The notes: generated by a model not told the origin, from the sequence alone. A stretch of 64,000 bases of DNA from Pseudomonadota bacterium (GCA_036141575.1 JAYZXF010000017.1:78077-142076); one strand, 5' to 3'. Shown: positions 18,381 to 60,676, counted from the stretch's first letter. Numbers and translations are program-made.

Positions 18381-18392
18381 GTAATAATCGCT

Positions 18393-26827: not shown

Positions 26828-27100
26828 GCTTGCTTCCTGTCTTTTATTTTTCAAATATAAAATTTGTAAAATAAAATTCAACGCAAGCTAGAGTCTTGGT
26901 TTAAAACCTTCCTTGTAAAAACAGTACTCCGTCCTGCTTTTAGCTTTTTTAAACCGCCCAAAACGCCTGAACGTTTTGGTTCGGCTACTCGCCTCACACT
27001 CTCATAGGCCAACACTTCTATTGTGTCCTAGTACTTTGCGGAGCAAAGCGCAGCCGGCGCTTAAGGGCGCCGAGCGCAAAGGTACAAAGTAGGGTAAGCT
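26828..27100. repeat. structured intergenic repeat family, copy C
   Basis: Hairpin 26842-26876. Segment 26958-27040 is the reverse complement of B 58331-58409. Hairpin CCAAAACG/CGTTTTGG at 26958-26979. Confidence 0.75.
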
Positions 27101-27608: not shown

Positions 27609-27902
27609 CTATTGTAGTGGTATGCATGAGGATCCATTAAAAAGCATGCCATTATTGGCACATGAGTGAGAATGGCTCTGATTACTCGAGATGCGATCAG
27701 CATCAGCTCTCAAACTTGAGAGTTCTGTATCTAAGACATCAAGCTGACCTGCCAGCACGGTCTTCCAGCTTTTTAGAGCAATACTGAGCGTATTCACTTG
27801 TCTTGAAAGGTTTTCTGTTTCTGCTTTTTGTGCAAGGGCGTCTGCAGGGAATGCCAGCAGTGCCGGTGCTGTAAGTAGAATAAAGGCTTTCTTGAGTTTC
27901 AT
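27609..27902 (-). CDS. secreted minimal member of the 'xxSRQxxxL' coiled-coil family (F8)
   Basis: ATG at 27902 (MKLKKAFILL... signal peptide). 'ENLSRQVNTLSIALKSW', coiled coil, and it ends right after the Cys loop 'CANNGMLFNGSSC'. Confidence 0.6.
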   Translation of the reverse strand: MKLKKAFILLTAPALLAFPADALAQKAETENLSRQVNTLSIALKSWKTVLAGQLDVLDTELSSLRADADRISSNQSHSHSCANNGMLFNGSSCIPLQ

Positions 27903-27916: not shown

Positions 27917-28579
27917 TTAGCATTGCGTGCCGCTTGTGCAGCTTGCAGTTGGGTTTGAGATATTATTTGTATTGGCGTAGTTTAGATAATTGACTGTTTC
28001 TTCCACAGACATAGCACCTGTTGTGGCTTCATTAGAGCCTGCAATATGTTGGCGCACTTCTGCAGCGGCTTGCGCTGCTGTCATGCCTGAACCTTGAAGT
28101 CTGTCCATCTCACCTTGCCAAAAATGTGCTCCAGCTTGGTCTGGTGCGCGGCCGAGCTCATCGCTATAAATTGCGCAAAGCTCAGGTGATGCTGTGCATG
28201 TGTTTTGTGTTGGAGTTGGTGCTGAGGCAACAGTTGGTGCTGAAGCTGATGGGGCAGGCGCTGCGCTGGCTGTTGGTAGCCCTATGCAGTGCGAACCATT
28301 ATAAAGCATATGGCTGTTGGCACAGTCATATGCATTACTTTGTTGCTGAAGCAATCTATCTGCCTCTGTTCTCAATCCCGAAATACTATTGCTGAGTGCT
28401 GTAAGCTCACTGTTTACATTTTGACGAAAGCCGTCAATGGTATTTCTAAGTGAGCCAACTTGCCTAGAAACACCCTCAACAGGCGTGAGCTGTGCTTGAG
28501 ATTCTAGCGTTGTAAGTAGTAGTGTTGGTGTAATAGCAAGTAATGCTTTTCTAAGTAATGCTTTTCTGTTTTTTGACAT
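27917..28579 (-). CDS. secreted coiled-coil family member with DUF4214-like C-terminus (F7)
   Basis: Signal peptide, 'VEGVSRQVGSLRNTIDGF', Cys loop 'CANSHMLYNGSHC', an Ala/Pro linker, then 'IYSDELGRAPDQAGAHFWQGEM' (DUF4214-type motif). Confidence 0.7.
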   Translation of the reverse strand: MSKNRKALLRKALLAITPTLLLTTLESQAQLTPVEGVSRQVGSLRNTIDGFRQNVNSELTALSNSISGLRTEADRLLQQQSNAYDCANSHMLYNGSHCIGLPTASAAPAPSASAPTVASAPTPTQNTCTASPELCAIYSDELGRAPDQAGAHFWQGEMDRLQGSGMTAAQAAAEVRQHIAGSNEATTGAMSVEETVNYLNYANTNNISNPTASCTSGTQC

Positions 28580-38724: not shown

Positions 38725-38890
38725 TTTCTTTGCTTGCTTTCCATCTTTTATTTTTCAAACATAAAGTCCAATGCAAGCTCTTGGAAAGCGTGAAGCATTC
38801 AACAGCATGGGCATTTTCAAGATAACCTTCACGGGGGCTATCATTTTACAAATTTTACATTTGAAAAATGATAGGGTGAGAGTGAAGAAG
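38725..38890. repeat. structured intergenic repeat family, copy D
   Basis: The left part resembles the left of copy C ('gcttgctttccatcttttatttttcaaacataaa'). Hairpin 38827-38887 is the reverse complement of the B hairpin, with different complementary outer stems. Confidence 0.7.
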
Positions 38891-38895
38891 AATAA

Positions 38896-40164
38896 CTATC
38901 TAAAATATCTACCCGCATGCAGTGTGAGGCCAACACCGACACTCCCAAACGCATCACCTGTTACCACATGTGCATGTGGAAAAGGCTCAAGCAGGGCTGC
39001 ACGAATCATTGGGAGTTTTGTTGAGCCACCAGTGAGGAATACGCTTGAAATTTGTTCGGCTGTCACGCCTGCATCATCAAGAGTTTCCTGTACTGTACGC
39101 TGCAATGAGTCACACGAATCAGACAAGCTCGGGCGAAGGTGATTGTTGTTTGTTACAGGAACACTTAGGCCTTTTTCAACAAAGTTCATATCAAGAATAT
39201 TCTCATCAGATGCAGACAGGGCAATCTTGGTTTCTTCAACCTTCATGGCCAGCGTGTGGCCGCTTTCATCCTCAAGAACGTTCAAATAGCGTTCAAGCTT
39301 GTCAGGGTCTAATGCATGGTTGAGTGTGTCTTCAACAAGGCGTACTGTCTTTTGGTTATACAGCGTGTGAATTTTTGGCCATGTCGCCAGCGTAAAGAAC
39401 AGCCATGGCGCAATTTCAATATCTTTATCAGAAAACGGTGCACGCATAAGGCCTTTATGACCAAGCTCAGGCATTGCACACATCAGGCTGAGAGCTTTAT
39501 CAAAGTCTGTACCACCAATATGTACACCGTGGTTAGAAAGAATGTCTTCTGAGCGGTTCTCTTTGTGTTTATGCTCTGGTGACAGGCGAATCACTGTAAA
39601 GTCAGACGTACCACCGCCAAGGTCAATAATCAGAGCGAGTTCTTCTTTCTTGAGCGTATCTTCGTAAGTATAAGCAGCGGCCAGAGGCTCAGGCAGGAAG
39701 GTTACATCTTTAAAGCCTGTGCTTTTTACAATCTCTTCCAGCATGTTTTGCGCCTCAGCGTCAGCCTTAGCGTCCCCATCAATAAAGAAGACCGGTCGAC
39801 CAATAGTTGCACGCGTGAGCTCTTCACCTGCGGTGGTGTCTACATGCTTTTTAATGTCGGCAATAAAGCTCCCAAGAATATCTGTAAAGGCAACTTGGCG
39901 GTTTCCAATACGTGTGCTTTCACGGGCAAGGTCTGTCCCTAGAATACTTTTAAGAGCGCGCATAAAGCGTCCATCATCCCCGCGTGTGTAGGCTTTTACA
40001 GCTGATCGACCAAAGCTTCTTGTGCTGTCATCATCAATAAAAATGGCACTCGGAATAGTGTTTTCATCGCCTTCCAAGTTACAAAGTGTTGCTGTGCCGC
40101 CTGTGAATAGGCCTGCTGTTGAATTGGATGTGCCGAAATCAATACCGCAAACTGGGGACGTCAT
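38896..40164 (-). CDS. Hsp70-family actin-like ATPase (YegD-like)
   Basis: Phosphate-1 'GIDFGTSNS', phosphate-2 'IIDLGGGTSDFTVI', and adenosine motif 'VFLTGGSTKLPMI'. No substrate-binding domain. Confidence 0.85.
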   Translation of the reverse strand: MTSPVCGIDFGTSNSTAGLFTGGTATLCNLEGDENTIPSAIFIDDDSTRSFGRSAVKAYTRGDDGRFMRALKSILGTDLARESTRIGNRQVAFTDILGSFIADIKKHVDTTAGEELTRATIGRPVFFIDGDAKADAEAQNMLEEIVKSTGFKDVTFLPEPLAAAYTYEDTLKKEELALIIDLGGGTSDFTVIRLSPEHKHKENRSEDILSNHGVHIGGTDFDKALSLMCAMPELGHKGLMRAPFSDKDIEIAPWLFFTLATWPKIHTLYNQKTVRLVEDTLNHALDPDKLERYLNVLEDESGHTLAMKVEETKIALSASDENILDMNFVEKGLSVPVTNNNHLRPSLSDSCDSLQRTVQETLDDAGVTAEQISSVFLTGGSTKLPMIRAALLEPFPHAHVVTGDAFGSVGVGLTLHAGRYFR

Positions 40165-40188
40165 TTGATAAGCCTTTCTTTGGAAAGC

Positions 40189-40527
40189 ATGGAAACTATC
40201 AAAGTTTCAGGCGTTTGTCATGAGAAAGTTCTTAAAAACGGTGAAGACTTCTTCTTTGAAGTGCCCAAGCACCCTGCCAACAAAATGTTTGCAGATCGCT
40301 TGCAGCACCTTGGCTTTGAGCGTTCCCCTCTGATTGCTCATGACGATTGTGATCGGTTCTATATGCCTGAAGGCACAGACTTGGCGCAAGTCACGCTGGA
40401 ATATCAGGAATACTTCAAAGCTGGCGAAGCGCCGACACCAGCCATTGTTCCACTGGGGCACTTGTCGCCCACGGTACAGGATAAGTCTCGTGGTATGGAT
40501 GTCGAAGACTGGCCGCCTGAGAATTGA
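40189..40527 (+). CDS. hypothetical protein (112 aa)
   Basis: First ATG of ORF 40165-40527. Terminator 40545-40571. Confidence 0.45.
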   Translation: METIKVSGVCHEKVLKNGEDFFFEVPKHPANKMFADRLQHLGFERSPLIAHDDCDRFYMPEGTDLAQVTLEYQEYFKAGEAPTPAIVPLGHLSPTVQDKSRGMDVEDWPPEN

Positions 40528-40544
40528 TTTGAAAACGAAAATAA

Positions 40545-40571
40545 AGGCACCCCGTCAGAAACGGGGTGTCT
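40545..40571 (+). terminator. rho-independent terminator
   Basis: AGGCACCCCGT-cagaa-ACGGGGTGTCT followed by TTATTTTT. Confidence 0.75.
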
Positions 40572-40624
40572 TTATTTTTGTGGGGGACTCATAAACCTTT
40601 AAGGTTGTAAGGGAGGTTCCTGTA

Positions 40625-41143
40625 ATGGGAGAAACTTTAGGCTATATATCACTTATCCTTTATGTAGTCGCATTATTATTTCATAAGCCACGCCATAGCT
40701 TTATTTGCTTTATTATCGCGAATCTCTTCTTTATTGCACAATGTATTGTTTCAGAAATGTATGTTGCAGTTATGGGACCTATTGGGCTAACAGCTCTTAC
40801 TGTCTTTATTTTAAATGTTAAGAAGAAAAATTGGACTGCTTATGTAAAAGGTTATGCAACTTTTACTGTATGTGTTGGGGTGTATTTTGCGTCTAGTGTA
40901 AGTGAGTATATTGTTGTAAGTGCTATGTGTATAGATGCTCTATCTCGCCTAGGTAGAGACCATTTTTACCTATTTAGAACCTTGTCTTCTTTAGGAAATA
41001 TACTATGGTTTACATCTTTTTACATAGAGGGAGTAACTTCTATTATGTTGATGAGCGCTTTGATGGTTTCTTTAAATGTGATTTATATGGTCAGACATGC
41101 GTTGAGAGATGAGGTGCTCTTTAAGCAAAAGGTAAATGAATAA
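40625..41143 (+). CDS. polytopic membrane protein in an AT-rich segment
   Basis: Five hydrophobic helices. 60-nt lines hand-counted at 27-37% GC. Confidence 0.55.
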   Translation: MGETLGYISLILYVVALLFHKPRHSFICFIIANLFFIAQCIVSEMYVAVMGPIGLTALTVFILNVKKKNWTAYVKGYATFTVCVGVYFASSVSEYIVVSAMCIDALSRLGRDHFYLFRTLSSLGNILWFTSFYIEGVTSIMLMSALMVSLNVIYMVRHALRDEVLFKQKVNE

Positions 41144-41268: not shown

Positions 41269-42108
41269 ATGAGGTTATTTGCAATTGTATGTATGTGTTG
41301 CGCACTGTTTGTCAGTGTGGCAGCCGTTTCTCAAACACGTGCAGGTGAAGGACTTTCACGCCAACTTCAATCTGTAAAATCAATGCTTGAGAGTTTCCGT
41401 AGCCATATAGATGGTGAAATCGCTCGTGTGGATAGTGAAATTAATACAGTGGATAGCAGAGTAGATGCTGCAAATACTAGAATGGATACCATGGACGGTC
41501 GTATGGATGGTATAGACACTCAGATTGGTGGCCTAAACTCGAGTATTAATTCACACGATAACCGTATTACAGCCCTAGAAAATGGGGAAACAGGTGTGCA
41601 AGTTTACAGAAACTGTGCACAACGTAATGTGACATGGGGCAGTGGAAATTGCCGAGGTACGCAGGGGCCCATTCCTCATGGCACAAGTATAACGGTTAGA
41701 GACACCGTTCAAGGTGATATTTGTACAAATAGATATCAATATGTTGGCTATGCTGTGTATAGTTGTAATGATGGTGTGGTAACGCGTAACGGGCAAGCTT
41801 GTCAGCGAACAGATTTCTACAATGAAAATCTATGTGAATCTGGCAGTGGTGGCGATAGCTATGCAAACTGTCAAGGTACAACAAGGACATGGTCAGAAAC
41901 GTATAATGGTCTAACTTCAACCTGTTCTGGATCAATTGGTTCTGTGCCACATGGTACAACCGCTACAGCAACAGACCCTAGAACTGGTTGTGACCGTCGA
42001 GACTTCACAGGTGGATCATCGACTTGGCTATGTGATAATGGTACTCTCAGAAGACAAGGTACTGCAACATGTAGAACCTGGGGCAGCTGGGGTAGCGACT
42101 GTCGATAA
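41269..42108 (+). CDS. secreted coiled-coil family member with 2 x 4-Cys modules (F3)
   Basis: Signal peptide, 'GEGLSRQLQSVKSMLESF', an Lpp-like repeat 'VDSEINTVDSRVDAANTRMDTMDGRMD', and Cys modules at 41614-41802 and 41869-42072. Ends in 'DCR'. Confidence 0.75.
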   Translation: MRLFAIVCMCCALFVSVAAVSQTRAGEGLSRQLQSVKSMLESFRSHIDGEIARVDSEINTVDSRVDAANTRMDTMDGRMDGIDTQIGGLNSSINSHDNRITALENGETGVQVYRNCAQRNVTWGSGNCRGTQGPIPHGTSITVRDTVQGDICTNRYQYVGYAVYSCNDGVVTRNGQACQRTDFYNENLCESGSGGDSYANCQGTTRTWSETYNGLTSTCSGSIGSVPHGTTATATDPRTGCDRRDFTGGSSTWLCDNGTLRRQGTATCRTWGSWGSDCR

Positions 42109-42288
42109 TTGAATAAATGAAAGCAGAAAAGGAGGGCACATGCCCTCCTTTTTGCAACAGGGGATATATTTATTTTTCTTGAAGTATCAATGTATTGCAA
42201 TTTTTACTCACCTATTTGTCAGGGATATGTTTATTTAAAGTTGTGGTTATATATATAAATAAAATGTGATTTATAAAAGGGGTTTAAA

Positions 42289-43374
42289 ATGAGAGCTTTT
42301 CCGATAGTAATGATTTTATCCTGTTTAGTTTTACTAACAGGCGTAGCTGGTGCGCAGAGCACGCGCTCTGGTGAAGGTATTGCAAGGCAGTTAATGTCTG
42401 TTAAAAGTATGATTGAAAATTTTGCTGATAACATCCGCACACGTGTGCAGACCGTTGAAAATGAAATGGATGCGGTAGAAACACGTATGGATACAGTGGA
42501 AGCTGATGTTGCAAGCGTACTTGCAACCGTTGCAACACATGAAACACGGTTGAGCTCGCATGATTCATCTCTATCTGGCCATGGTCGCCGTATTCGAGCA
42601 CTCGAAGAGCGCGAGCCAACAGGTGGTGGAGGTAGTACAGCACCAACACCAAGTGCGTGTAACGGTAGAAACATGTCATGGGGAGGGGGATGTAGTGCTT
42701 ATGTACAATCTCTACCTGATGGGGGTGCTGTCGTTCTGAGAGATCAAGTTGCTGGTGATGTATGTACAAATAGACAGCAGTATGTTGGTCAAGTTCGTGT
42801 GGCTTGTAACAATGGTCAAATTTCTACAAAGAACGCCTCTTGTGAGCTGAGAAACGTTTATAACGCAACTCAGTGTAGTGGTGGCACAACACCAACACCG
42901 AAGAAGAGATGTGCAGCAAAAGATGTGAGCTGGAAGAACAATGCTGGTACAGTCACATGTCGTGGTAGAATTGTTGCAGCTGATCATGATTCAACACGTC
43001 GTGTAACATTTGATAACAACAATACAAAACCTGGTGGAAAACGTATTACTGGTGCAGCAAACTTTATTTGTGACAACGGTGTGTTCAAACGTACATCTAA
43101 GAACTGTAAAGAAACTGTTAACCCTGAGCCTCCTAAGCCTTGTGCAGGCAAGTCTGTGAGTTGGACTAGTAATGGTGTTACATGTCGAGGAACTGTTTCG
43201 AATACGCCACATGGTTTAACTTCAAGTGTAACAGACCCTAACCGAACACGAGAGTGTGAGAACATTATAGATACAACAGGTAGCGCAAGCTTCAGGTGTA
43301 CAAATGGATCGTTCAAGAAGGTCTCTGGCTCTTGCAGGCAGGTACGGAGTCGTCGAACAGGTGACTGTCGATAA
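42289..43374 (+). CDS. secreted coiled-coil family member with 3 x 4-Cys modules (F4)
   Basis: Signal peptide, 'GEGIARQLMSVKSMIENF', a coiled coil, and three Cys modules between 42658 and 43335. Ends in 'DCR'. Confidence 0.75.
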   Translation: MRAFPIVMILSCLVLLTGVAGAQSTRSGEGIARQLMSVKSMIENFADNIRTRVQTVENEMDAVETRMDTVEADVASVLATVATHETRLSSHDSSLSGHGRRIRALEEREPTGGGGSTAPTPSACNGRNMSWGGGCSAYVQSLPDGGAVVLRDQVAGDVCTNRQQYVGQVRVACNNGQISTKNASCELRNVYNATQCSGGTTPTPKKRCAAKDVSWKNNAGTVTCRGRIVAADHDSTRRVTFDNNNTKPGGKRITGAANFICDNGVFKRTSKNCKETVNPEPPKPCAGKSVSWTSNGVTCRGTVSNTPHGLTSSVTDPNRTRECENIIDTTGSASFRCTNGSFKKVSGSCRQVRSRRTGDCR

Positions 43375-43434
43375 GGACTCTATAAAAGAAAGCGGCGCAA
43401 GAGCGCCGCTTTTTTGTAACTCGAACGGCTCGCT

Positions 43435-43992
43435 TTATTTACATGGATCTGATGAGTAAGAACAAACTGGATTAGAAATAACAAAGTCACCATTACGACA
43501 AGTTACTGTAGCAGAGCCTGAAATATGGTTACCACAACGTGGGCGTGGGTGGGTAACTGTTGCAGTATCACCTTCATTGGCACCCCATGCAGTACTTGTA
43601 CATGTTGGATTACCATAGGCACCAGTCCATTGCACAGGTCTGCTTGTACAGCCAGACACTGTTCCAGAGCTGCCTGTCATATCATCGTGGGAAACGCAGC
43701 CTCGTCCATCTGCATCTGGGTGTGTTGGCCAGTGAATGCTTGGATCACCAGATGTATTGATACATGCTGTTCGTTGGTTCTCTCGTGTTTCAAGATTTGT
43801 TACACTGTTTTCAACGTTTGTCATGCGGGGTCTCATATCATTTGCAAATGCTTCCATCATATTTTTAAGAGATGTAAGCTGTCTGCTGATACCTTCACTT
43901 GTACGTGTCTGTGCATCAGAGTTAGAAATAACGATGAGGGATGCTGTTGTGAGAATTGCCGTAAAAATGAGGCAAGATTTTTTCAAATTCAT
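43435..43992 (-). CDS. secreted coiled-coil family member with 1 x 4-Cys module (F5)
   Basis: Signal peptide, 'SEGISRQLTSLKNMMEAF', loop 'CINTSGDPSIHWPTHPDADGRGC', and one Cys module. Ends in 'DPCK'. Confidence 0.72.
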   Translation of the reverse strand: MNLKKSCLIFTAILTTASLIVISNSDAQTRTSEGISRQLTSLKNMMEAFANDMRPRMTNVENSVTNLETRENQRTACINTSGDPSIHWPTHPDADGRGCVSHDDMTGSSGTVSGCTSRPVQWTGAYGNPTCTSTAWGANEGDTATVTHPRPRCGNHISGSATVTCRNGDFVISNPVCSYSSDPCK

Positions 43993-44104
43993 AATCTTTA
44001 TCCTTTACTTTTACCGGTTGATGCTACGCCTGTGTATGGGGGTGGTCAAATTAAAAAATGAAAAAGACCTAGAAAAATCTAGGCCTTATCACGTTTAAGT
44101 TGTT

Positions 44105-45106
44105 TTATTGAGGTTCACCATTATGCTCTTTAGAGAGTGGGTATTTTCCTTTTTTGTCTGGAATAGAGCCGTGGACAAGAATACCGTTTGCATAGTAAGT
44201 GTGGTCACCATCTAGCATAAGGTTGTAGAGGCGGCGGTCTTCTTCTTCCTGTGGGACAATCATGATGGATTCAATAAGCTGACGCTTGCCTTGTGCCATA
44301 ATGAGTGTTTGGCCAATTTCAAGCTGACCAATGTTACCAGAAAGTTGGTCGTAAGCTTCTTTCTCAGCCATATCTGGGTTAAGGGCCTTCCAGCCGTCTG
44401 TTGTCATAAGAGGGTGGTTATCTGTTGTAAAGGCAGTTTCACCGTTAATCTCAATAAGGTGCTGGTTTTTACCTTTGCGCAGAAGAGGGCGGTCAAGGTC
44501 TAGCACGGTGTTAATTGCACCGTCACGGCCCATCAGCTTATCACCAATTTTAACTTTATGAATTTCAAGGTCACTACCATCCGCCATAAGTACTTTTGTT
44601 TCAGCCGTAAAGCATGAGCCGCGGCAAACTGCTGCACAATTTTCCATACTATTAGGCGTTAGGTTTGTATTACAGCGGCAGGCACATCTCCACCCCACCC
44701 AAACTTGGTCGCTTGGGCATGTAGGAGGCGTGTAGGTGCCACCACCTGTTGGGCCTTCAATATCTGTATGTGTTACACAGTTATTGCTATCAGCATCTGG
44801 ATGGTTTGGCCAATACAGGCTTGTTGTTGATCTGTTATGGCAGAACGTTTGCCTATTAATAACTGTCTGGAGGTCTGAAATATCCGTTTGTGCTGTTGAG
44901 AGCTGTGTTTCTAGAGTGCTAATTCTAGAGCTCATGCCAGTAGACATGCTTTCCATCATGTTTTTAAGGGAGAGAACTTGCCTTGAAAGTGCTTCACCCG
45001 CACTTGTTTGTGCCCATACATTGGCAGCTAAAATGATTGTGCAAAGAGAGAGAAAGATTGCAATGGATTTAAGTATTTTACCCTTGAAAAACATAGTGGC
45101 CACCAT
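44105..45106 (-). CDS. secreted coiled-coil family member with C-terminal Hint/BIL domain (F6)
   Basis: 'AGEALSRQVLSLKNMMESM', loop 'CHNRSTTSLYWPNHPDADSNNC', then Hint blocks 'CFTAETKVLMADG', 'TTDNHPLMT' and 'HTYYANGILVHGS'. The start is at 45106 or 45094. Confidence 0.75.
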   Translation of the reverse strand: MVATMFFKGKILKSIAIFLSLCTIILAANVWAQTSAGEALSRQVLSLKNMMESMSTGMSSRISTLETQLSTAQTDISDLQTVINRQTFCHNRSTTSLYWPNHPDADSNNCVTHTDIEGPTGGGTYTPPTCPSDQVWVGWRCACRCNTNLTPNSMENCAAVCRGSCFTAETKVLMADGSDLEIHKVKIGDKLMGRDGAINTVLDLDRPLLRKGKNQHLIEINGETAFTTDNHPLMTTDGWKALNPDMAEKEAYDQLSGNIGQLEIGQTLIMAQGKRQLIESIMIVPQEEEDRRLYNLMLDGDHTYYANGILVHGSIPDKKGKYPLSKEHNGEPQ

Positions 45107-50848: not shown

Positions 50849-52951
50849 GTGATGGCTATAAAAAGAACAAGAAATATCGTCCTAAGCGCTGTTTTAACGG
50901 CGGTTTTCTTGCATTCTGAAAGCCTTTACGCACAAAATTTCCCAGATAGCGCTCGTACAGAAAGCATTCTAAAGAGCTTAGAGCCTGTCAAAACACCTGA
51001 TGCAGACCTTGAGAGAAGCACGCTTCCAGATAAACCTGAGCCTATAGCCACACAACCAAAGGCACAGGAAAAGTCTGACAGCGAGCCACAAAAGGCTGAT
51101 ACAAAAGATGAAAAACTTCCTGACGTAGAGACAGAGGATATCAGTAGCGGTCTTGGTATCGCCAAAATTCAAAAAGCTGTGCCGTCTGAGCCTGAGTTTG
51201 AGGTAAAAACCATTGAGGTGAAGGGAAGTACTGTATTTGATGAGCGGGCACTTCGTCCATACCTTGCTGCGATGGAAGGAGACTGGCAAACCTTGTCTAA
51301 ACTTAAAGGCCTAGCCGACACACTGACACGCTTGTACCAATCTGAAGGGTACATTTTGTCGCGTGTGGTGGTGCCAGCGCAGGAAATTACATCTGGCCAC
51401 GTTGTTCTACAAGCGGTGGAAGGCAGCATTCAAGATATTCACTTTGTGGGTGATCTCCCAGAAGAGGGACGCTTGATCCAGAAGTATGCAGAAGAAATTA
51501 AAAAGTCAGTGCCTCTTAACATTAAGCAACTTGAGCGCTCAACGCTTCTTATGAATGACCTACCGGGTCTGAGCGCAAAGGCGGTACTTAGCCCTGCAAA
51601 AGATGTGACACAGCGTTTTGAAACGGGTGTAGATACAACGCAGCAAAGCTATAAGCTTCGTCAAACGCTCAAAGCGATGGGGCTTACTGAAAACCAAATT
51701 GGTAACTATGTGGATATTGTTGGCGCTGTACAGGCTGCTAATGTGAAGCAAGTTCAAGCGACAGACCTATCTCTCATCCTGCAAGGTATGGGTATTCCTG
51801 ATAACCAACGTAAGATTCTTGTAAAGAAAGCTGTTGAAGCTTCAGACCGTAACCGCTTGCAAAGCAATACACAGCAAGTGACAGAAGCACTCGTGTCTCT
51901 ATCTGACCTCAATATTTACATTGAGAGCAAAGAGAAAACAGCAAGCCTAGCCATTGATAACTTCGGAACCAAGTTTGTGGGCCCAATTCAAGTGACGGGT
52001 GCGCTGAGTATTGCCCATGACGATGAGGCCCGTAGTGAAACCTCTCTAGGCTTTAGTACATCTGCTGATATGAAAGAGATGAAGTTTGGTGAAATTAAGC
52101 ACAAACGCCAAATTGGCGATAAAGGAACCACTGTAGAAGGGACATACAGTATTGCACGCTCTGAGCCGGGCAGCACGCTTGCTGACCTTGAGTTTGAAAG
52201 TGCATCTGATGTAATTGGCGTAACGGTAGAACATCCTGTAATCCGTAGCCGTAGTAAAAACCTAAAGGTTCGTGCCACAGCTGATGCGCGTAGCAGTGAG
52301 GTGAAAACACTTGGTGACCGCTTTAGTAAAGATACCACGCGTAGTGTGCGCCTTGGTGCAACATATGACTTTGCTGATGAGTACAAAGGAATCAACCTTA
52401 TTGATGTGGAATTGAGTAAAGGCCTAGATATTCTTGGTGGTGACGATAGATCAACAACGTCACGTGCAGATGGCCAGCAGGACTACACAAAGGTTGCTGC
52501 TCAGCTTTCGCGTCTGCAACGACTTGGTAAGTTTACCAACCTTCTCGCCACTGTACGCGGTCAGTATGCCTTTAACCCACTTCTAGCGAGTGAAGAGTTT
52601 AGCTTTGGTGGCGCGTCTCAGGGGCGTGGATTTGACCCAGCAGAGCTTACGGGTGACCATGGTATTGGCGGTACACTACAGCTTTCGTATGACTTGCCAA
52701 TGTGCCGTAAGTGCCTGAAAGATATTAGTATGTACGGTTTCTATGATGCGGGTATGGTCTGGGAAGAAAATGGCGGTACTGGTGATGATAGAAGCTTTGC
52801 TTCAAGTGCGGGTCTTGGTGCAAGTATGAACTTTACAGATAAGCTTAGCGGTAAGATTGAGTTTGCCAAGCCTTTGGTTGGTTCGCGTGGCAATGATAGC
52901 GAAGATGCAAAAGCACCTGTGGTGTTAATGCGCCTAAAAGGACAATTATAA
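50849..52951 (+). CDS. two-partner secretion outer-membrane transporter (ShlB/FhaC/HecB family TpsB)
   Basis: Signal peptide. POTRA 'IEVKGSTVF...LYQSEGYILSRVVVPAQEITSGHVVLQAVEG'. C-terminal beta-barrel. Directly upstream of tpsA. GTG at 50849 or ATG at 50852. Confidence 0.85.
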   Translation: MMAIKRTRNIVLSAVLTAVFLHSESLYAQNFPDSARTESILKSLEPVKTPDADLERSTLPDKPEPIATQPKAQEKSDSEPQKADTKDEKLPDVETEDISSGLGIAKIQKAVPSEPEFEVKTIEVKGSTVFDERALRPYLAAMEGDWQTLSKLKGLADTLTRLYQSEGYILSRVVVPAQEITSGHVVLQAVEGSIQDIHFVGDLPEEGRLIQKYAEEIKKSVPLNIKQLERSTLLMNDLPGLSAKAVLSPAKDVTQRFETGVDTTQQSYKLRQTLKAMGLTENQIGNYVDIVGAVQAANVKQVQATDLSLILQGMGIPDNQRKILVKKAVEASDRNRLQSNTQQVTEALVSLSDLNIYIESKEKTASLAIDNFGTKFVGPIQVTGALSIAHDDEARSETSLGFSTSADMKEMKFGEIKHKRQIGDKGTTVEGTYSIARSEPGSTLADLEFESASDVIGVTVEHPVIRSRSKNLKVRATADARSSEVKTLGDRFSKDTTRSVRLGATYDFADEYKGINLIDVELSKGLDILGGDDRSTTSRADGQQDYTKVAAQLSRLQRLGKFTNLLATVRGQYAFNPLLASEEFSFGGASQGRGFDPAELTGDHGIGGTLQLSYDLPMCRKCLKDISMYGFYDAGMVWEENGGTGDDRSFASSAGLGASMNFTDKLSGKIEFAKPLVGSRGNDSEDAKAPVVLMRLKGQL

Positions 52952-53016
52952 ACAACTGACAGGCGGAAACATTAATAAAACCGCTTATAAGAACTTAAGG
53001 AAAGTAAAACATTAAC

Positions 53017-56000
53017 ATGCTGAAAATGTTGAGGGAAAGTAAGAGTCTAACGGCCCGTTATATCCGTGGTCTGCTTTCTGCTGTGCTGACATTTTCACCG
53101 GTACTTTCTTATGCTGGCCCAACTGGCGCGGCAGTTCAAAGTGGCAATATCATTATTTCTCAGCCAGATGCAGCAAGTACACTTATCCAGCAAGGTACCC
53201 ATAAAGGGATCATTAACTGGCAAGACTTTTCCATTGGTGCAGGTGAGAGTGTTCAGTTCCAAGTGCCTTCAGCTCAGGCAAAAACATTAAACCGTGTAAT
53301 CGGTCATAATGTTTCTGATATCCAAGGCGCACTCAGCAGTAATGGACAGCTTTATCTTGTAAACCCGAACGGGGTGATCTTTGGGGCTGGCTCTCGCGTA
53401 GATGCGGCAGGCCTCCTGGTTACAACTTCTAATGTTTCAGATGAAGATTTCCTAAATAACTTTTTGAATTTACAAGAGGCTTCTGAAGGTTCTGCCATTG
53501 TGAACAATGGTGATATCTCGATTAAAGATGGCGGCTTTGCCTTGCTTGTTGCCCCACAAGTGGTGAACAACGGAACCATTATTGCGCGCTTTGGTAAAGT
53601 GGGTATTGGTGCAGGTTCTAAAGGAACCATTGATCTTTATGGTGATGGGTTGATTCAGTTTGAACCATCAAGCGATGTTGCAAATCTTGTGAATAACGGC
53701 GTCATTCGCGGTGGTTATGTAGAGCTAACCGCAGCAGATGTAGACGCCCTCCTTAAAGGTGTTGTGCGTGTAAACGGTTTTGTAAGTGCAGACCATGTGG
53801 TGATTGAAGGGGGCGAAAACTCTATTGTACGCCTGAATGGTTCAGTCATAGCGCAGCGTGAAGCTGAGCAAATTGGTGGTCGCGTAGATGTACTGGGTGA
53901 CCTAGTTTCTCTACTTGAAAATACTGATATTGATGTTTCTGGTGAACTTGGCGGTGGTCAAGTCCATGTGGGTGGAGACTACCAAGGTAAAGGTACGCTT
54001 AAAACAGCTACAACTACATATATGACTGCAGGCGCAGAGATTGATGCCAGTGCTATCCGTATGGGTGATGGTGGTAAAGTGATTCTTTGGGCTGATGGCA
54101 CCACACACTTTGCAGGCGATATTGTCGCGACTGGTGGTTCTGATGGCGGTGATGGTGGTTTTGTTGAAACCAGTGGTAAGGGGCAACTTGCCTACCGTGG
54201 TGCAGTGGATGTAACTGCTGAAAATGGTGATATTGGTTCACTGCTTCTTGACCCTGAAAATATTACAATTTCATCTGATCCATTTACACCAACTGATCTG
54301 GCAGGTGGTGTGTATTGGTTTGACCCAAGCGCCGTTGGTGGTGTGAACACAACGGGTAGCAATGTGACTCAGATTAATGACCTGATTCCAGGCGTGGGTG
54401 GTTCTAATAACGCCACGCAAGGCTCTGCAGCTCTTCAAGCTGAACTTGTAGCAGCAGGCCTTAACGGTCGTGATGCGCTCGATTTTGATGGCGCAGATGG
54501 TTATGACATGGCCAACAATGCATCTATCAACACCTCAGGAAGTACCGACCGTATTATCCTCATTGCCTTTAGAACAGGCGCAGACGTAACAAGCCAGCAG
54601 TACCTGTATGAGCAGGGTGGTGGCTCTAACGGTTATGGTATGTATATTGAGGCAGGGCAACTTGTTGTCGCGGGTTGGCGTAACAGTAGCGGTAGCTGGA
54701 ACAACTACGCAACAACTGCAGTTACACCAAATACCACTTACGTGGCAGGTTTAAACCTAGATAACAACACCATGAGTGCATGGGTAAACGGCGATAAGTT
54801 CCAAACATATAACAACACCAATGGCCAAAATGCCCATAGTGGTGGTATTGACCTCGGTCGTAACGGAGATACCCGTGACGCTTCAGGGAGCCTTGGCGCT
54901 TGCTGTAACTTCCTTGGTCAGATAGGTGAAGTAATTCAGTACAACACAGCCGCAACAGATGCTGAAATGCAGGAAGTGTCTCAGTATCTTGCGCTTCAGT
55001 GGGGTGCAACGCTAGATTCACCAGGCACAGATTACACAATTTCACTTGAGAACCTAGAGGCACAGCTTGCTGGCGCAAACATTACCCTTCAGGCTGAAGA
55101 TAACATCACCATTGATGATATTGCTGATGATAGCCTAGACCTTGCCATGGACGGCACAGGCAGCTTTACACTGATTGCTGATAATGATGCAGACGGTGTG
55201 GGTACCATTAGTATGGACGCCTCAGACGCCATTGTGACCCAAGGTGGTGATATCACCATGACGGGTGCCGTGATTGATGTGAATAATATTACAAGTAACG
55301 GCGGTGACGTAACACTCAGCGCAACAGCAGCCCTTACAGCCGATGTAATTAATGCCGGTGCAGGTAACATTGCCCTGACAGCTGACAGCAATAACGATAG
55401 CGCAGCTGTGGCTCTTACAACGTCTGATCTGACTGCTGATGGCATTACGCTAACTGGTGGGTCGGATAATGATGATATTCTCAACCTCTCTGGCACCATT
55501 AGCAGTGGAGCGGGGGGCTTAAGTCTCAATAATTTTGCAAGTGGTGACCTCGATAACGCCACAATTGATACAAATGGCCAAGCCTTTAACAGTGCCATTA
55601 ACTTTACGCTAAGCGGCGCAGGGGTAAGTACGATTCAAACTGGCGGTGGTGATATTACGCATTCTGGAACCTTTGATGGTACGGAAGGACTTATTTTAAA
55701 CGCTGGCGCTGGTAATATTGACCTCAGTGGTGCAGCTGGTGGTGGTACAGCTCTAACCAGCCTCACAGCAACAGGTTCTACTATTCAGCTGGATGATGTG
55801 ACAACGGTTTGGCATCAAAACTATACGGGTGCAACCACAACCAATGGCGACCTTGCTGCCACGGGTGCAGGTAATGTGCGCTTTGTAAATAATGTTACGT
55901 TGGGTGCGGATACCAACATCACAACCAATACTGGAGATATTGACTTTGGCGGCACGGTTGATGGTGGGCAAGCGCTTGTGCTAAATTCGACATCTGGTGA

Positions 56001-57291
56001 TTTGATTACGACAGGTGACTTTGGTGGCGGTGCAGCACTGACATCTTTGAATGTGGGCACAGCCAATGCCGACCTACAAGAAGTGACAACAACGGGCGGC
56101 ATTACAGTTTCTGGTATTACAACATATAACGATGACCTTAACGCTGGCGGCGCATTAAATCTATCAGGTACAGGTACGCTTGCTGCTGATACAGTCTTCC
56201 AAAGTACGGGCGGCGGTATTGTAACGCTTGGCGGCACTCTTAATGGTGCCCAAAACCTAACGGTTACAACAGGTGGGCTTTTAAATCAGGGCGCAACAAT
56301 TGGGGGCGGTACACGCCTTACAAGCCTTACTTTAAATGGAGCAAACACACAGCTTACCGGTGATATCTACACAGCGAATGCTCTCAGCTTTGGCCTGAAT
56401 ACCAACCTTGGTGCACGTGTGGACTCTCTAGATACGGTCATATTTAACAACGCCCTAACGCTTGCGGGTGCAAGTACTGTTGTAGGAGCTAATGGTATTA
56501 CCTTTAACGATACCGTTAATGGGGCACAAGATCTAACTGTAGAAAGTTCAGCAGGTGACATTAGCTTTGCAGGTAATGTGGGGAATAGTTCTGCCCTGAA
56601 TACGCTGACAATTACAGATACAGGCAACCTTACATTTGGTGCCGATGTGACCCTTGCAGCGCTTGACCAGCAAGCTGGCCGTGCAACAACAAGCCTTGGC
56701 TCTAACTTTAACAGTACTGGTAACGTAGATATTCTTGGTGTGAATATTAATGGTGATATTCTCAGCGCTGGGGATGTGATGTTTAATGTAACAGGGAGCG
56801 TCACAGGTCAATTGTTTGCAAACAGCTTTGCACTCCAAGCAGAAAACAGTGACCAAACCGGTGAAGTGAATAGTATTGGCGGCTTGGATGCTCTAAAAGA
56901 GATTCAGTTTACGCAGTTTGGTGCAGGCCCACACTTGTTTAACGGCTTTATTCTACCGTATGAAACCATTATTCAAGCCACATCTACTGGATATGAAACA
57001 ACGCAAATTAACCGTGCGGGTCGCTCGCTATCTGGTGGCTTTGTAAGAACCATTTCAGATCTACCAGATCTTGAGATTCTTAAGAGTGCAGGGCGTGCAC
57101 GTGTAAGCCGCATTGCGCCAACAGATGCCAGCTTTGCTAAACTTGCTCTAGGTTCAGATAATAGCCTCGTTGTGAACCCTTTCCTTATGGACTTTAGAAG
57201 TGTGGATATTGAACCTGGCACAGAGCTCTTCTATAACCCATACCCATACCTAGAAAAGAGCGTGTGGAACTGGCTCTCTTACAGAGACTAA
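53017..57291 (+). CDS. filamentous-haemagglutinin-like TpsA exoprotein with internal LamG-like domain
   Basis: TPS domain 'INWQDFSIG...LNRV...LSSNGQLYLVNPNGVIFG', beta-helix repeats, and a ConA/LamG-like insert around aa 480-650 ('LYEQGGGSNGYGMYIEAGQLVV'). Confidence 0.88.
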   Translation: MLKMLRESKSLTARYIRGLLSAVLTFSPVLSYAGPTGAAVQSGNIIISQPDAASTLIQQGTHKGIINWQDFSIGAGESVQFQVPSAQAKTLNRVIGHNVSDIQGALSSNGQLYLVNPNGVIFGAGSRVDAAGLLVTTSNVSDEDFLNNFLNLQEASEGSAIVNNGDISIKDGGFALLVAPQVVNNGTIIARFGKVGIGAGSKGTIDLYGDGLIQFEPSSDVANLVNNGVIRGGYVELTAADVDALLKGVVRVNGFVSADHVVIEGGENSIVRLNGSVIAQREAEQIGGRVDVLGDLVSLLENTDIDVSGELGGGQVHVGGDYQGKGTLKTATTTYMTAGAEIDASAIRMGDGGKVILWADGTTHFAGDIVATGGSDGGDGGFVETSGKGQLAYRGAVDVTAENGDIGSLLLDPENITISSDPFTPTDLAGGVYWFDPSAVGGVNTTGSNVTQINDLIPGVGGSNNATQGSAALQAELVAAGLNGRDALDFDGADGYDMANNASINTSGSTDRIILIAFRTGADVTSQQYLYEQGGGSNGYGMYIEAGQLVVAGWRNSSGSWNNYATTAVTPNTTYVAGLNLDNNTMSAWVNGDKFQTYNNTNGQNAHSGGIDLGRNGDTRDASGSLGACCNFLGQIGEVIQYNTAATDAEMQEVSQYLALQWGATLDSPGTDYTISLENLEAQLAGANITLQAEDNITIDDIADDSLDLAMDGTGSFTLIADNDADGVGTISMDASDAIVTQGGDITMTGAVIDVNNITSNGGDVTLSATAALTADVINAGAGNIALTADSNNDSAAVALTTSDLTADGITLTGGSDNDDILNLSGTISSGAGGLSLNNFASGDLDNATIDTNGQAFNSAINFTLSGAGVSTIQTGGGDITHSGTFDGTEGLILNAGAGNIDLSGAAGGGTALTSLTATGSTIQLDDVTTVWHQNYTGATTTNGDLAATGAGNVRFVNNVTLGADTNITTNTGDIDFGGTVDGGQALVLNSTSGDLITTGDFGGGAALTSLNVGTANADLQEVTTTGGITVSGITTYNDDLNAGGALNLSGTGTLAADTVFQSTGGGIVTLGGTLNGAQNLTVTTGGLLNQGATIGGGTRLTSLTLNGANTQLTGDIYTANALSFGLNTNLGARVDSLDTVIFNNALTLAGASTVVGANGITFNDTVNGAQDLTVESSAGDISFAGNVGNSSALNTLTITDTGNLTFGADVTLAALDQQAGRATTSLGSNFNSTGNVDILGVNINGDILSAGDVMFNVTGSVTGQLFANSFALQAENSDQTGEVNSIGGLDALKEIQFTQFGAGPHLFNGFILPYETIIQATSTGYETTQINRAGRSLSGGFVRTISDLPDLEILKSAGRARVSRIAPTDASFAKLALGSDNSLVVNPFLMDFRSVDIEPGTELFYNPYPYLEKSVWNWLSYRD

Positions 57292-57305: not shown

Positions 57306-57329
57306 AAAGCCACCCCGAAGGGTGGCTTT
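57306..57329. terminator. bidirectional terminator after tpsA
   Basis: AAAGCCACCC-cgaa-GGGTGGCTTT. Confidence 0.8.
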
Positions 57330-57342
57330 CTTTTTATATCGC

Positions 57343-58159: not shown

Positions 58160-58545
58160 CTTCACTTTCATTCCACCATTTTTCAAATTTAAAATTTGTA
58201 AAATGGTGGACCCCGTGAAGTAAGTCTTGGTGCGCAAGTTTTTAAGTATTTTAGGTCTGCTTACATCCCTAAAATAGCTCTTGTGCACCGCCGTAGCGTC
58301 TGAACGCTACGGCTCGCTTTTTCAGCTCGCGAAGTACTAGGAGATAACAGAGATATTGGCCTGATAGAGTGTGAGGCGAATAGCCGAGCCAAAACCTTAA
58401 GAGGTTTTGAGCGGTTTGAAGCAGTTAAAAATAAGACAGAGGATTATTTTTACTATAAATGCTTTAAACCAAGACTGTACTTTGCGGGCTATCGTCTTTT
58501 TGAAGTAGTGAAACGAATGAAAAAAGCGAGAGCGTAAAGCAAAGA
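58160..58545. repeat. structured intergenic repeat family, copy B (longest)
   Basis: AT-rich hairpin 58173-58209 inside the outer stem CTTCAC/GTGAAG (58160-58220). Hairpin GCCGTAGCG-tctgaa-CGCTACGGC. Hairpin 58389-58409. Internal 9-bp inverted repeat 58223-58231 / 58468-58476. Homologous to copies A, C and D. Confidence 0.8.
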
Positions 58546-58645: not shown

Positions 58646-60676
58646 TTAGTTAAACACAGCAGTTGGGCCTTTGGCACCTGTGCCGCCTTTAAAACGTGCT
58701 TTTTTGAAAGCTGCGTTTGAGCCAGCGCCTTTGCTACCTTTAAAGCTACCGCCTTTGCCCTTAAATGGCTTGTTGCCAGCAGATGAACGATCATCGCCAT
58801 CACGCTTATTGAAGCCACCGCTCATGCGCTTACCAGCTGGTGTACCGCGTCCGCGTGTACCGTAAGTGCGTGCGCCATCATCCTTTTTGAATGGGCTCTT
58901 TTTACGTGTTGAGTCTGTTTGCGTCATGCGCTTCTTCTGCTTGTCGTGCATTTTAGCTGGTGCGCGAGACTCACTGCGATCTTCTCCGAAAGAACGGTTA
59001 CCATCGCGGTCGCCGAAGCTGCGCTTCTTGTCGCCGTAAGAGCGGTTACCATCGCGGTCGCCAAAGCTGCGCTTCTTATCGCCGAAAGAGCGGTTACCAT
59101 CGCGGTCGCCAAAGCTGCGCTTCTTGTCGCCGAATGAACGGTTGCCATCACGGTCACCAAAGCTGCGCTTCTTGTCGCCGAATGAACGGTTGCCATCGCG
59201 TTCGCCAAAGCTACGCTTCTTGTCACCGTATGAACGGTTGCCATCACGGTCACCAAAGCTGCGCTTCTTGTCACCGTAAGAGCGGTTGCCATCGCGGTCA
59301 CCAAAGCTACGCTTCTTATCACCGAAGTCGCGCTTGTTACCAAACTCACGCTTGTCGCCAAAGTCGCGCTTTTCAAATGAACGCTCACCATCTTTACGGA
59401 AGCTCTTACGCTCGCCGTCTTTTTTGAATGAACGTCTGTCATCTCTATCGCCGAAGCTACGCTTCTTATCGCCGTATGAATCACGGTTACCATCTTTAGC
59501 GCCGTAGCCGCCTTTGCGGTGTGATTTTGCCTTACGATCTTGGAATGTACGCTCTTTGCGAGGCTTAGATGTTGGTGCGTTAGATGTTTCACCACCCCAT
59601 ACAAGGCGTTCAATTGCTTTCCACTTGCCGTTTTCTTTCTTGGTAATGTACGCCAGAGCGTGACCCGTAGCACCGGCACGTGCTGTACGGCCAATACGGT
59701 GGATGTAATCTTCTGGGCATTGTGGAAGGTCATAGTTAATCACGTGCTGAATGTGAGGAATATCAAGACCACGTGCCGCAACGTCTGTTGCCACAAGGAT
59801 TTGGTATTTCTCTTTTCTGAATGCATCTGTTACGCGCTCACGTTTGTTGTGACGAAGGTCACCGTGGATTGCAGCTGCTTTAAAGCCTTCTTTCTTCAGC
59901 TTATCAGCCATGCGCTCAGTGCCGTACTTTGTCTTTACGAACATGATGATTGAGCCTTCACGGCCTGAGAGTTCACCAAGCAGGTCGTCGTACTTCTCAG
60001 CATCAGTCACGCGTTTTGTTTGGTGATCAATGTTTTCAGCAGGCTTTGTTGTTGCGCCAATGGCAATACGCTCAGGGTTGTTGAGGTAGTTCTTCGCAAG
60101 AGACATGATGTTCTTTGGAAGTGTTGCACTAAATAGAAGCGTTTGGCGCTCGGCTGGCATGTGGCTCACAATTTCTTCAATCTGAATGCTGAAGCCCATG
60201 TCGAGCATGCGGTCTGTTTCATCAAGAACCAGGAAGTGGCAGTTGTTAAGCTTGAGGCTGCGACGGTTCAGGTGGTCGTTAATACGGCCTGGTGTACCAA
60301 CAATAATACGTGGACGGAATGAAAGGCTTTTCAGCTGTTTGTGCATAGAGTCACCACCAATAAGTAGGCATGTGTTAATGCCAGAGCGGTGAGGGAGGAA
60401 GCCTTTAATGTTGTCTTGTACCTGCGCGGCAAGTTCACGTGTTGGTGTCACAACAATAGCTGTGTCTTCTTCGTTTTCAAGGAGGTGGTTCACCATCGGA
60501 ATACCGAAAGCACCTGTTTTACCCGTACCTGTTTGGGCAGAACCAAGGATATCGCGACCTTGCATCGCGAAAGGAATTGTTTTTTCTTGAATTGGAGTTG
60601 GAGATTCAAAACCCAGTTTTGTTAGGGCATGAGTCAAATCTTCAGAAAGCCCAAGTTGGGCGAATGTTTGCGTCAT
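58646..60676 (-). CDS. DEAD-box RNA helicase (RhlE-like) with repetitive basic C-terminal tail
   Basis: Q-motif 'GFESPTPIQ', motif I 'AQTGTGKT', motif II 'DETD', 'SAT', and 'HRIGRTARAG'. The tail has 7 x 'GDKKRSFGDRDGNRS[YF]'. Confidence 0.92.
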   Translation of the reverse strand: MTQTFAQLGLSEDLTHALTKLGFESPTPIQEKTIPFAMQGRDILGSAQTGTGKTGAFGIPMVNHLLENEEDTAIVVTPTRELAAQVQDNIKGFLPHRSGINTCLLIGGDSMHKQLKSLSFRPRIIVGTPGRINDHLNRRSLKLNNCHFLVLDETDRMLDMGFSIQIEEIVSHMPAERQTLLFSATLPKNIMSLAKNYLNNPERIAIGATTKPAENIDHQTKRVTDAEKYDDLLGELSGREGSIIMFVKTKYGTERMADKLKKEGFKAAAIHGDLRHNKRERVTDAFRKEKYQILVATDVAARGLDIPHIQHVINYDLPQCPEDYIHRIGRTARAGATGHALAYITKKENGKWKAIERLVWGGETSNAPTSKPRKERTFQDRKAKSHRKGGYGAKDGNRDSYGDKKRSFGDRDDRRSFKKDGERKSFRKDGERSFEKRDFGDKREFGNKRDFGDKKRSFGDRDGNRSYGDKKRSFGDRDGNRSYGDKKRSFGERDGNRSFGDKKRSFGDRDGNRSFGDKKRSFGDRDGNRSFGDKKRSFGDRDGNRSYGDKKRSFGDRDGNRSFGEDRSESRAPAKMHDKQKKRMTQTDSTRKKSPFKKDDGARTYGTRGRGTPAGKRMSGGFNKRDGDDRSSAGNKPFKGKGGSFKGSKGAGSNAAFKKARFKGGTGAKGPTAVFN
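58988..59323 (-). repeat. 7 x 48-bp in-frame tandem repeat inside the helicase gene
   Basis: Units 58988-59035, 59036-59083, and so on to 59276-59323, each encoding GDKKRSFG[DE]RDGNRS[YF]. Degenerate relatives extend to about 59500. Confidence 0.9.

Follow-up and report, generated by a model that had tools for sequence, protein, structure and literature searches.

The animal proteins collectins, tetranectin and langerin combine a secretion signal, a trimerising α-helical coiled-coil neck and a disulfide-stabilised C-terminal sugar-binding head, and gain avidity through oligomerisation. In Bdellovibrio bacteriovorus, the MAT fibres are about 1000 amino acids (aa) long and begin with a conserved β-rich N-terminal domain of ~130 aa, followed by a shaft that forms a β-stranded 'meandering' trimer; 13 of the 21 MATs carry an S74 protease (Caulton et al. 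2024; PMC10769870). Here we describe a family of secreted proteins encoded by eight genes, F1 to F8, in a 64,000-nucleotide (nt) stretch of a metagenome-assembled genome (MAG) of a Pseudomonadota bacterium (GCA_036141575.1), referred to below as the window, with four of the genes clustered at 41269–45106. The reading that we favour, with confidence about evenly balanced between belief and doubt, is that these proteins are exported, disulfide-stabilised and probably trimeric coiled-coil stalks with modular binding heads at the far end, forming a lineage-specific family. The family itself is undescribed and uncurated, while the stalk-plus-head design is already familiar for adhesion.

The eight genes and their common stalk

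A hidden Markov model (HMM) built from 42 family N-termini and run against all six-frame open reading frames (ORFs) of the window recovered exactly F1–F8, with E-values from 6e-16 to 1e-29 (F5, 4e-20), and no further member with E < 0.5 in any six-frame ORF. This is in line with the first-pass annotation of the sequence, which had listed eight members at the positions given below, including the four of the cluster. The GC content of the genes (0.42–0.47) is the same as that of the remainder of the window, Shine-Dalgarno-like sequences precede most of them, and Rfam and tRNA scans of the window gave no matches. Within the cluster, F5 and F6 on the plus strand converge with F7 and F8 on the minus strand. 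A GC-rich palindromic hairpin between F6 and F7 (43389–43412) is likely a two-way terminator, and a terminator-like hairpin on the minus strand (44064–44087) stands directly 3' of F8, so that F8 and F7 would be separate transcripts.

All eight proteins start with a Sec-type signal peptide comprising a basic n-region and a hydrophobic core, as had been noted at first reading, and so do nearly all members of the wider family. A small-x-small|Gln cleavage site precedes the N-terminal motif in 36 of 48 family sequences, and in these 48 the motif starts at most 9 residues, most often 5, from the predicted mature N-terminus. No family member has a lipobox ([LVI][ASTVI][GAS]C closing the signal peptide). 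The motif, x[ST]EG[ILV][SA]RQ[VIL]xxL[KR]xx[ML]xS[FY], is present in all eight proteins as described earlier, but the description of it as nearly invariant was too strict, only E, R and Q being invariant among F1–F8. On reading the sequence, hydrophobic residues follow a 4-3-4-3 spacing already inside the motif, and the AlphaFold2 (AF2) model of F7 contains a single continuous helix, residues 25–78, that passes straight through it. Considering this spacing and the uninterrupted modelled helix, the motif seems to form the opening turns of the stalk and not a distinct anchor domain. The layout proposed in the first-pass annotation, a constant anchor and stalk with exchangeable tips, therefore keeps its heptad stalk and its exchangeable C-termini and loses its anchor, which does not look like a separate domain and has no conserved partner gene beside family members in other genomes.

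Searches of the constant part against Pfam, NCBIfam, PHROGs and PDB sequence profiles returned no family, as had been supposed for the N-terminal motif, and coiled coils appeared below threshold only (DUF1664, Baculo_PEP_C, DUF7310, XhlA, Lpp, reovirus sigma-1 and the P22 tail needle). The length of the stalk is quantised. From the motif Glu to the first loop Cys, the distance is 37, 44, 51, 58, 65 or 72 residues (37+7n) in 37 of 39 loop-bearing members, gaps in the family alignment come as blocks of 7, and the stalks of F8 and of its ortholog-like relative P0038 differ in length by exactly 21 residues. The heptad phase is thus kept through length changes, as a coiled coil requires, indicating that the stalk is one. 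In the long coil of F5, the core reads mostly as Val, Ile and Met with little Leu, a composition that favours trimers over dimers. Given this core and the nearest coil matches, weak ones that include the known trimers reovirus sigma-1, P22 gp26 tail needle and Lpp, the stalk is probably trimeric. Two pairs of neighbouring genes may be mentioned here: F3 lies 14 nt downstream of F4 and shows 49% identity to it over a 43-residue local alignment of the stalk/loop region, and F5 and F6 are likewise adjacent, both being loopless; pairs of the F3/F4 and F5/F6 type could form mixed coiled coils.

In six of the eight proteins the stalk is closed by a putative disulfide loop, either C-x(3-8)-[IML][YF][AW]P...[DN]xxGC or the short form C..[ML][LF][YF]NGSxC. 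The earlier assignment of such a loop to every member fails for F5 and F6, where the coil runs on longer in its place. Domain and cysteine counts across the family were made on 49 members of 97–459 aa. After residue 25 the number of Cys is even in 47 of the 49, and odd only in the two that bear a Hint domain, with 8 plus the catalytic Cys. Even counts suggest full disulfide pairing and an oxidising compartment, in agreement with the signal peptides. The C-terminus reads C-[RK], mostly with Arg, in 15 of the 49.

Tips, mosaicism and relatives

Beyond the stalk the proteins diverge. F7 (43435–43992, minus strand, 185 aa) consists of a signal peptide (aa 1–27, nt 43912–43992), motif and stalk (aa 28–76, nt 43765–43911), a disulfide loop C77–C99 (nt 43696–43764) and one Cys-rich β module (aa 115–184, nt 43441–43650), and ends in ...PCK. 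F5 (41269–42108, plus strand, 279 aa) has a signal peptide (aa 1–21), the motif with a long coiled coil (aa 22–~112) and two such modules (aa 116–189 and 201–278); F6 (42289–43374, plus strand, 361 aa) has a signal peptide (aa 1–22), motif and long coiled coil (aa 23–~113) and three modules (aa 124–196, 208–273 and 285–360), and both proteins end in ...DCR. The module is 62–79 residues long with invariant Cys, Trp and Gly positions. Its one to three copies had been recognised at first pass as a '4-Cys module'; the copy numbers hold, but the core of four Cys is accompanied by a Cys3/Cys6 pair that is present or absent jointly. Both residues are missing from the middle module of F6 and from modules 2 and 3 of the relative P0041, and this joint loss implies a predicted Cys3–Cys6 bond around the four-Cys core. 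The segment from Cys1 to Cys2 contains the conserved Trp. In the AF2 model the F7 module is a β domain with a predicted local distance difference test (pLDDT) score of 74–93 per 10-residue block (mostly 88–93), for which Foldseek found no neighbour in the PDB (best E 0.59).

F8 (44105–45106, minus strand, 333 aa; the NCBI-style start is at 45094) combines a signal peptide (aa 1–32), motif and stalk (aa 33–88, nt 44843–45010), a loop C89–C110 (nt 44777–44842), a 54-aa segment with six Cys (aa 111–164, nt 44615–44776), a Hint domain from Cys165 to ...VHGS314 (nt 44165–44614) and a 19-aa tail (nt 44108–44164) that is conserved in P0038. The Hint domain, already proposed, is borne out by PF05203 (50.2 bits, cut-off 32.1; 4e-13) and by the intein C-terminal block TIGR01443 (23.6 bits, cut-off 15.6), and the PT-HINT match falls just below its cut-off (26.0 against 27.7 bits). 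Cys165 is preceded by Arg-Gly-Ser and the TxxH motif reads TDNH, both conserved in P0038. The C-terminal block is ...ANGILVH, and F8 and P0038 both read ...LVHGS, with Gly replacing the Asn of HN. With His-Gly in place of His-Asn, only the N-terminal acyl shift/cleavage is expected, neither splicing nor C-terminal cleavage, and F8 should, to judge from these residues, cut itself at Ser164|Cys165 via a thioester. Such a cut would leave a stalk protein ending in ...CRGS, close to the ...C[RK] terminus of members tipped with modules.

The other four genes lie outside the cluster. F1 (8770–9582, plus strand, 270 aa) has a signal peptide, the motif, a 44-aa stalk, a Cys loop and a ~185-aa β-sandwich tip (nt 9022–9579) whose model is a lectin/CBM-like (CBM, carbohydrate-binding module) jelly roll. 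Its paralog F2 (12170–13015, plus strand, 281 aa; the ORF opens also at GTG 12161) carries the same tip type, with 36% identity to F1 past the motif region in a local alignment. Sharing of this domain had been thought confined to F1 and F2; P0042, P0064 and P0070 also align weakly with it. F4 (27917–28579, minus strand, 220 aa) continues from signal peptide, motif, stalk and short Cys loop through an Ala/Pro/Ser linker into the tip that was listed earlier as DUF4214-like. This tip scores 16.2 bits against DUF4214 (PF13946, cut-off 23.2), and F4 and P0046 share 51% identity across 202 aa that include the tip; DUF4214 is matched by 4 of the 49 members (best 3.7e-15), the record stating neither which member gave this match nor whether P0046 is among the four. 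F3 (27609–27902, minus strand, 97 aa; the ORF reaches 27923, giving 104 aa if the upstream ATG is used) is the tipless member, as first described; it has the signal peptide, the motif and the stalk, and its chain stops directly after the short Cys loop.

Among relatives the range of tips widens. Hint is matched by 2 of the 49 members, P0077 matches H_lectin (PF09458; 29.7 bits, cut-off 24), and P0053 matches VOMI (PF03762; 25.7 bits, cut-off 25) with a weaker jacalin match. The cut-offs of these curated lectin-type models are exceeded only by relatives outside the window, by none of its own eight members. Most tips of relatives have no match to a curated model, and the family as a whole has at least 10 tip types unrelated to one another.

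Tips, modules and whole genes are mosaic between close genomes. F8 and P0038 are 71% identical in the Hint domain, tail included, and 46% in the stalk, and the segment between loop and Hint is the six-Cys 54-mer in F8 and a standard Cys-rich module in P0038. The module occurs in 1, 2, 3 and 4 copies in F7, F5, F6 and P0041. At the syntenic locus of a more distant relative (L003), a single 474-aa gene, P0180, stands for F5 and F6 and falls in the same 90% cluster as the four-module P0041, and F7 has an ORF of 111 aa as its only counterpart. In a close relative (GCA_035092365.1, L094; PntA 99.7% identical), F1, F3, F4, F5, F6 and F7 have orthologs with 90–99.5% identity, and F2 has no counterpart at its locus (L094 13231–13420), which is collinear apart from this and where a 351-aa gene is directly followed by an M48 peptidase gene.

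Against the orthologs of the close relative, the ratio of nonsynonymous to synonymous divergence (dN/dS) is 0.02–0.29 (F5, 0.16; F6, 0.29; F7, 0.02), indicating that these are real genes under purifying selection. The F1 tip (9022–9579) has a dS of 0.81, compared with 0.32 in its own stalk and 0.02–0.15 in the flanking genes, and the spacer upstream of F1 is 96% identical to that of the close relative. This excess suggests that the tip allele was imported or diverged anciently, being much older than its surroundings, as would follow from recombination near the stalk/tip junction. The divergence of the tip is mostly synonymous (dN/dS 0.08), pointing to allele exchange under constraint and not to rapid adaptive change.

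To delimit the family, the N-terminal profile from the window was searched exhaustively with HMMER against 1.84 billion cluster representatives, yielding 253 matches at E <= 1e-3. Of the best 150 matches, about 45 show the complete layout, in which a signal peptide is combined with the motif at residues 15–50, and the remainder of these 150 are long repetitive coiled-coil proteins; clustered at 50% identity, the family comprises ~45 clusters. Annotated members are named 'hypothetical protein' or, wrongly, 'YoxC', and no cluster has an informative name; in the source MAG, where the window spans locus tags VX730_07895 to VX730_08135, all are 'hypothetical protein'. That genome holds at least three further members outside the window (VX730_05805, VX730_07115 and VX730_07730), so that the eight in the window are part of a set of at least 11 paralogs; the first-pass annotation had asked for such a genome-wide count. 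A word-indexed protein search yielded one match for the N-terminal profile, none for the module profile and two close orthologs only for the F1 tip, a low yield attributable to domains too short for E-values scaled to 5.8 billion sequences. Pattern searches with the F7-type N-terminus in GTDB genomes, 2.9 million viral contigs and JGI metagenomes confirmed no relatives, a weak negative given the narrow patterns, and literature searches returned no description of the family.

The few relatives that could be placed come from kin of this Magnetococcales-like marine MAG. The nearest PntB sequences are those of 'Alphaproteobacteria bacterium ANT-120' and 'uncultured Magnetococcales bacterium' (94%), followed by 'Magnetococcales bacterium MED694' and UBA2136 (65%). 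The host is an uncultured marine lineage near Magnetococcales. No conserved partner or anchor gene accompanies the family, the neighbourhoods of six other members consisting of unrelated housekeeping genes around mostly single members.

Functional readings and the rest of the window

The reading set out at the beginning can be stated as a mechanism. A parallel α-helical coiled-coil stalk, probably a homotrimer, would start almost at the mature N-terminus, be closed in most members by the disulfide collar loop, and bear at its far end one or more small β-rich binding domains. Bundling of the chains would gather identical heads, such that weak binding to sugars or surfaces is made strong by avidity, and a stalk length counted in whole heptads would fix the reach of the heads. 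As independent folding units, the heads would be gained, dropped or exchanged through recombination and duplication, and each genome would thereby have a repertoire, here of at least 11 genes. The lectin-type tips of relatives and the jelly-roll model of F1 fit with a binding or adhesin role, and to this extent the adhesin or fibre repertoire proposed at first pass holds up; that the window's own tips bind would follow by analogy. Where the proteins act, at the cell surface, in the medium or in the periplasm, we can only infer.

Several points weigh against this reading. No cell anchor is evident, since lipobox, transmembrane segment, β-barrel and conserved partner gene are all missing, so that attachment to the surface is purely our inference. 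A dimer or monomer is also compatible with the data, and F3 carries no tip at all. Positive selection on the tips is unsupported by the gene-wide dN/dS of 0.02–0.29.

The main rival would place the proteins in the periplasm, as struts or tethers whose coils, like those of Lpp or the OmpM/SlpA stalks, set or sense envelope spacing while the tips bind peptidoglycan or outer-membrane components. This would fit with a Sec signal as the only export signal, with the lack of an evident device nearby for translocation across the outer membrane, with Lpp matches that are weak and at the level of the coil (PF04728, E 0.23; 1eq7 and 9rld) and with the quantised stalk length, as well as with the C-[RK] ends, which recall the basic C-terminus of Lpp. 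Lpp itself is not expected in this lineage, as in Alphaproteobacteria generally. We nevertheless regard this as unlikely. These proteins have neither a lipobox nor any membrane anchor, and their terminal residue, mostly Arg, is not cross-linkable like the Lpp lysine; at least six stalk lengths and the ten or more unrelated tip types, several of each in one genome, are ill-suited to a uniform spacer. Lectin, VOMI and jelly-roll tips look outward-facing, and presence or absence that differs between near-identical genomes is unusual for a core envelope part.

The polarity of the stalk could also be the reverse, with the variable C-termini, and the reactive C-terminus made by the F8 Hint, fastening the protein to envelope or matrix and the conserved N-terminus as the exposed working end. 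The most conserved part does stand at the free mature N-terminus, commonly five residues in; Hedgehog-type Hint chemistry can ligate an upstream polypeptide to a nucleophile, and DUF4214 is common in surface-layer-type proteins. Yet a helical start of 20 residues with only E, R and Q invariant makes a poor functional head, the ligand-binding end is normally the one with variable lectin-like domains, and the tipless F3 would be left without an anchor. We hold this arrangement to be a degree less probable than periplasmic struts.

Little supports the two remaining alternatives. Polymorphic toxins or bacteriocin-like effectors would account for a constant N-terminus for delivery and variable, toxic C-termini, with Hint as the releasing protease, and the layout, the near-threshold PT-HINT match, the differing repertoires of close genomes and a two-partner secretion (TPS) system 6 kb away are in line with this. 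No tip of the 49 members matches a toxin family, however, and the 19 residues past the F8 Hint are too few for a toxin. A conserved small downstream gene of the immunity type is absent, members standing mostly alone among housekeeping genes with neighbours that differ at every examined locus, and these proteins of only 100–460 aa have no T5, T6 or T7 targeting domain; we therefore consider effectors improbable. Tail fibre or needle genes derived from a phage or gene transfer agent and resident in the chromosome are the least credible source, since the matches to a phage tail adhesin and tail needle (phrog_17426, 4.7e-5; phrog_1219, PF16532 and 4lin) are confined to the coil, every member has a signal peptide, a feature absent from virion proteins, the scan of neighbouring genes identified none of phage type, the GC content equals the genome average, and the narrow pattern search of 2.9 million viral contigs gave no relatives.

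Within the favoured reading of exported stalks with binding heads, a bolder and unlikely version can be formulated, in which the family is a bacterial counterpart of the collectins: homotrimeric, heptad-tuned stalked lectins, their heads shuffled by recombination, that would capture particles, prey or host surfaces, with the F8 Hint thioester joining the stalk covalently to a nucleophile on the envelope or target. We know of no description of Hint-thioester anchoring of a bacterial adhesin. Aside from function, the ~45 clusters define a protein family outside every curated library, expanded to 11 copies or more in an uncultured marine lineage with a small genome, on whose surface biology literature searches found nothing. 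The family also contributes several small folds, rich in disulfides, that have no neighbour in the PDB, and an unusually placed Hint domain. A heptad-stepped stalk with plug-in heads is a compact natural scaffold for multivalent display, of possible interest for adhesion, particle attachment in the ocean and protein engineering. If the tips serve in recognition, repertoires that differ between near-identical genomes would reveal what these cells attach to.

Other features of the window are recorded here in their own right. The TPS pair lies at 50849–57291 and consists of a 700-aa TpsB transporter (POTRA_2, ShlB) and, behind it, a TpsA exoprotein of 1424 aa that contains a TPS domain; at 6 kb from the cluster it constitutes a second, classical adhesin/exoprotein system nearby. 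Directly upstream of the cluster, 38896–41143 encodes a 422-aa Hsp70/actin-fold protein with HSP70 matches only to residue ~226, a 120-aa ORF (dN/dS 0.51) and a 172-aa multi-pass membrane protein without family match. This gene order is syntenic in two relatives, and the 172-aa protein is syntenic upstream of F5 only in close relatives; a link of these genes to the stalk family is possible and has no support. At 5637–7715 on the minus strand, an unusual 582-aa fusion joins an N-terminal Cro/C1-type helix-turn-helix (HTH) to a RuBisCO large-subunit catalytic domain (5967–7715). Its amino acids are identical in the close relative (dN 0, dS 0.12), and the ortholog of an adjoining 104-aa ORF matches RuBisCO_small.

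Several repeats were also found. An intergenic element of ~80–230 nt occurs in four copies (20181–20345, 58328–58545, 26882–27040 and 38818–38895), two direct and two inverted, with 77–91% identity. Rfam does not match it, and it could represent a small mobile element or else a regulatory or small RNA region common to these sites. Near-identical GC-rich hairpins (AAAGCCACCCCGAAGGGTGGCTTT and a variant) recur at 10223–10255, 57306–57338, 17673–17705, 18361–18393 and elsewhere, several of them at or just past gene ends, and are probably a shared family of intrinsic terminators. A 48-nt tandem repeat at 58935–59511 (7–9 copies, 66–93% identity) encodes a 16-residue unit in the C-terminal part of a DEAD-box helicase gene (58646–60676, minus strand).

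Comparison with known systems

The family is distinct from the Bdellovibrio MAT, Lpp and autotransporter families. With the MAT fibres it shares a repertoire of paralogs with exchangeable C-terminal tips, a common design and not a common ancestry, which agrees with the treatment of these fibres as analogy only in the first-pass annotation. Where a MAT has its ~130-aa β-rich domain after the signal peptide, the mature N-terminus here runs into a helix in the AF2 model of F7; in place of a β shaft in a protein of ~1000 aa there is an α-helical stalk in one of 97–459 aa, and Pfam scans of the 49 members gave no S74 match. Trimeric autotransporter adhesins were rejected as a class, given that no YadA-type β-barrel was matched in Pfam and that the polarity is opposite, the variable part here being C-terminal.

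Lpp resembles the stalks as a short exported heptad coil with a core rich in Val, Ile, Met and Ala, and gives weak profile matches. It differs in its lipobox Cys, which is missing here, in the large tips of this family, and in the C-terminus, usually Arg or another residue instead of the cross-linked Lys. Membership in Lpp (PF04728) was rejected, the best member, F3, scoring 12.3 bits against a cut-off of 29.1. T4 fibritin, reovirus sigma-1 and P22 gp26 have the same polarity and general architecture, with N-terminal attachment, a coiled coil and a C-terminal head, and the best stalk neighbours in the PDB, both insignificant, are 6gaj (E 0.013) and 4lin (E 0.09). Unlike these virus and phage fibres, the proteins described here have signal peptides and no phage context, and apart from coiled-coil composition no homology was found.

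For individual tips, two comparisons can be made. The F8 Hint resembles bacterial intein-like (BIL) and Hedgehog Hint domains in exceeding the model thresholds and in its Cys165 nucleophile, its TDNH and its ...ANGILVH block; it departs from them in the His-Gly ending, in its location, C-terminal in a coiled-coil stalk protein, and in being followed by a tail of only 19 aa instead of a toxin or extein. The Cys-rich module, at ~60–70 aa, β-rich, Cys-paired and in tandem, recalls Sushi/CCP domains, with a local 'C..G.....C.NG.[FWY]' resemblance (CFHR1, E 0.37, i.e. ~0.4, over 22 residues only; 5o35_C, Foldseek rank 2, probability 0.28, E 0.78). Assignment to Sushi/CCP was rejected, as there is no Pfam Sushi match, the Trp stands between the first and second Cys and not between III and IV, and the loss of Cys3 together with Cys6 points to a pairing other than the I–III and II–IV bonds of Sushi domains. 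With its insignificant scores and different cysteine logic, the resemblance is a lead only.

The collectins differ from the family in their collagen region and C-type lectin domain and show no sequence kinship with it; these proteins are bacterial and lineage-restricted, and the head varies among paralogs. What the two have in common is the same order of parts, and the heads of the relatives include an H-type lectin and a VOMI/jacalin-like domain.

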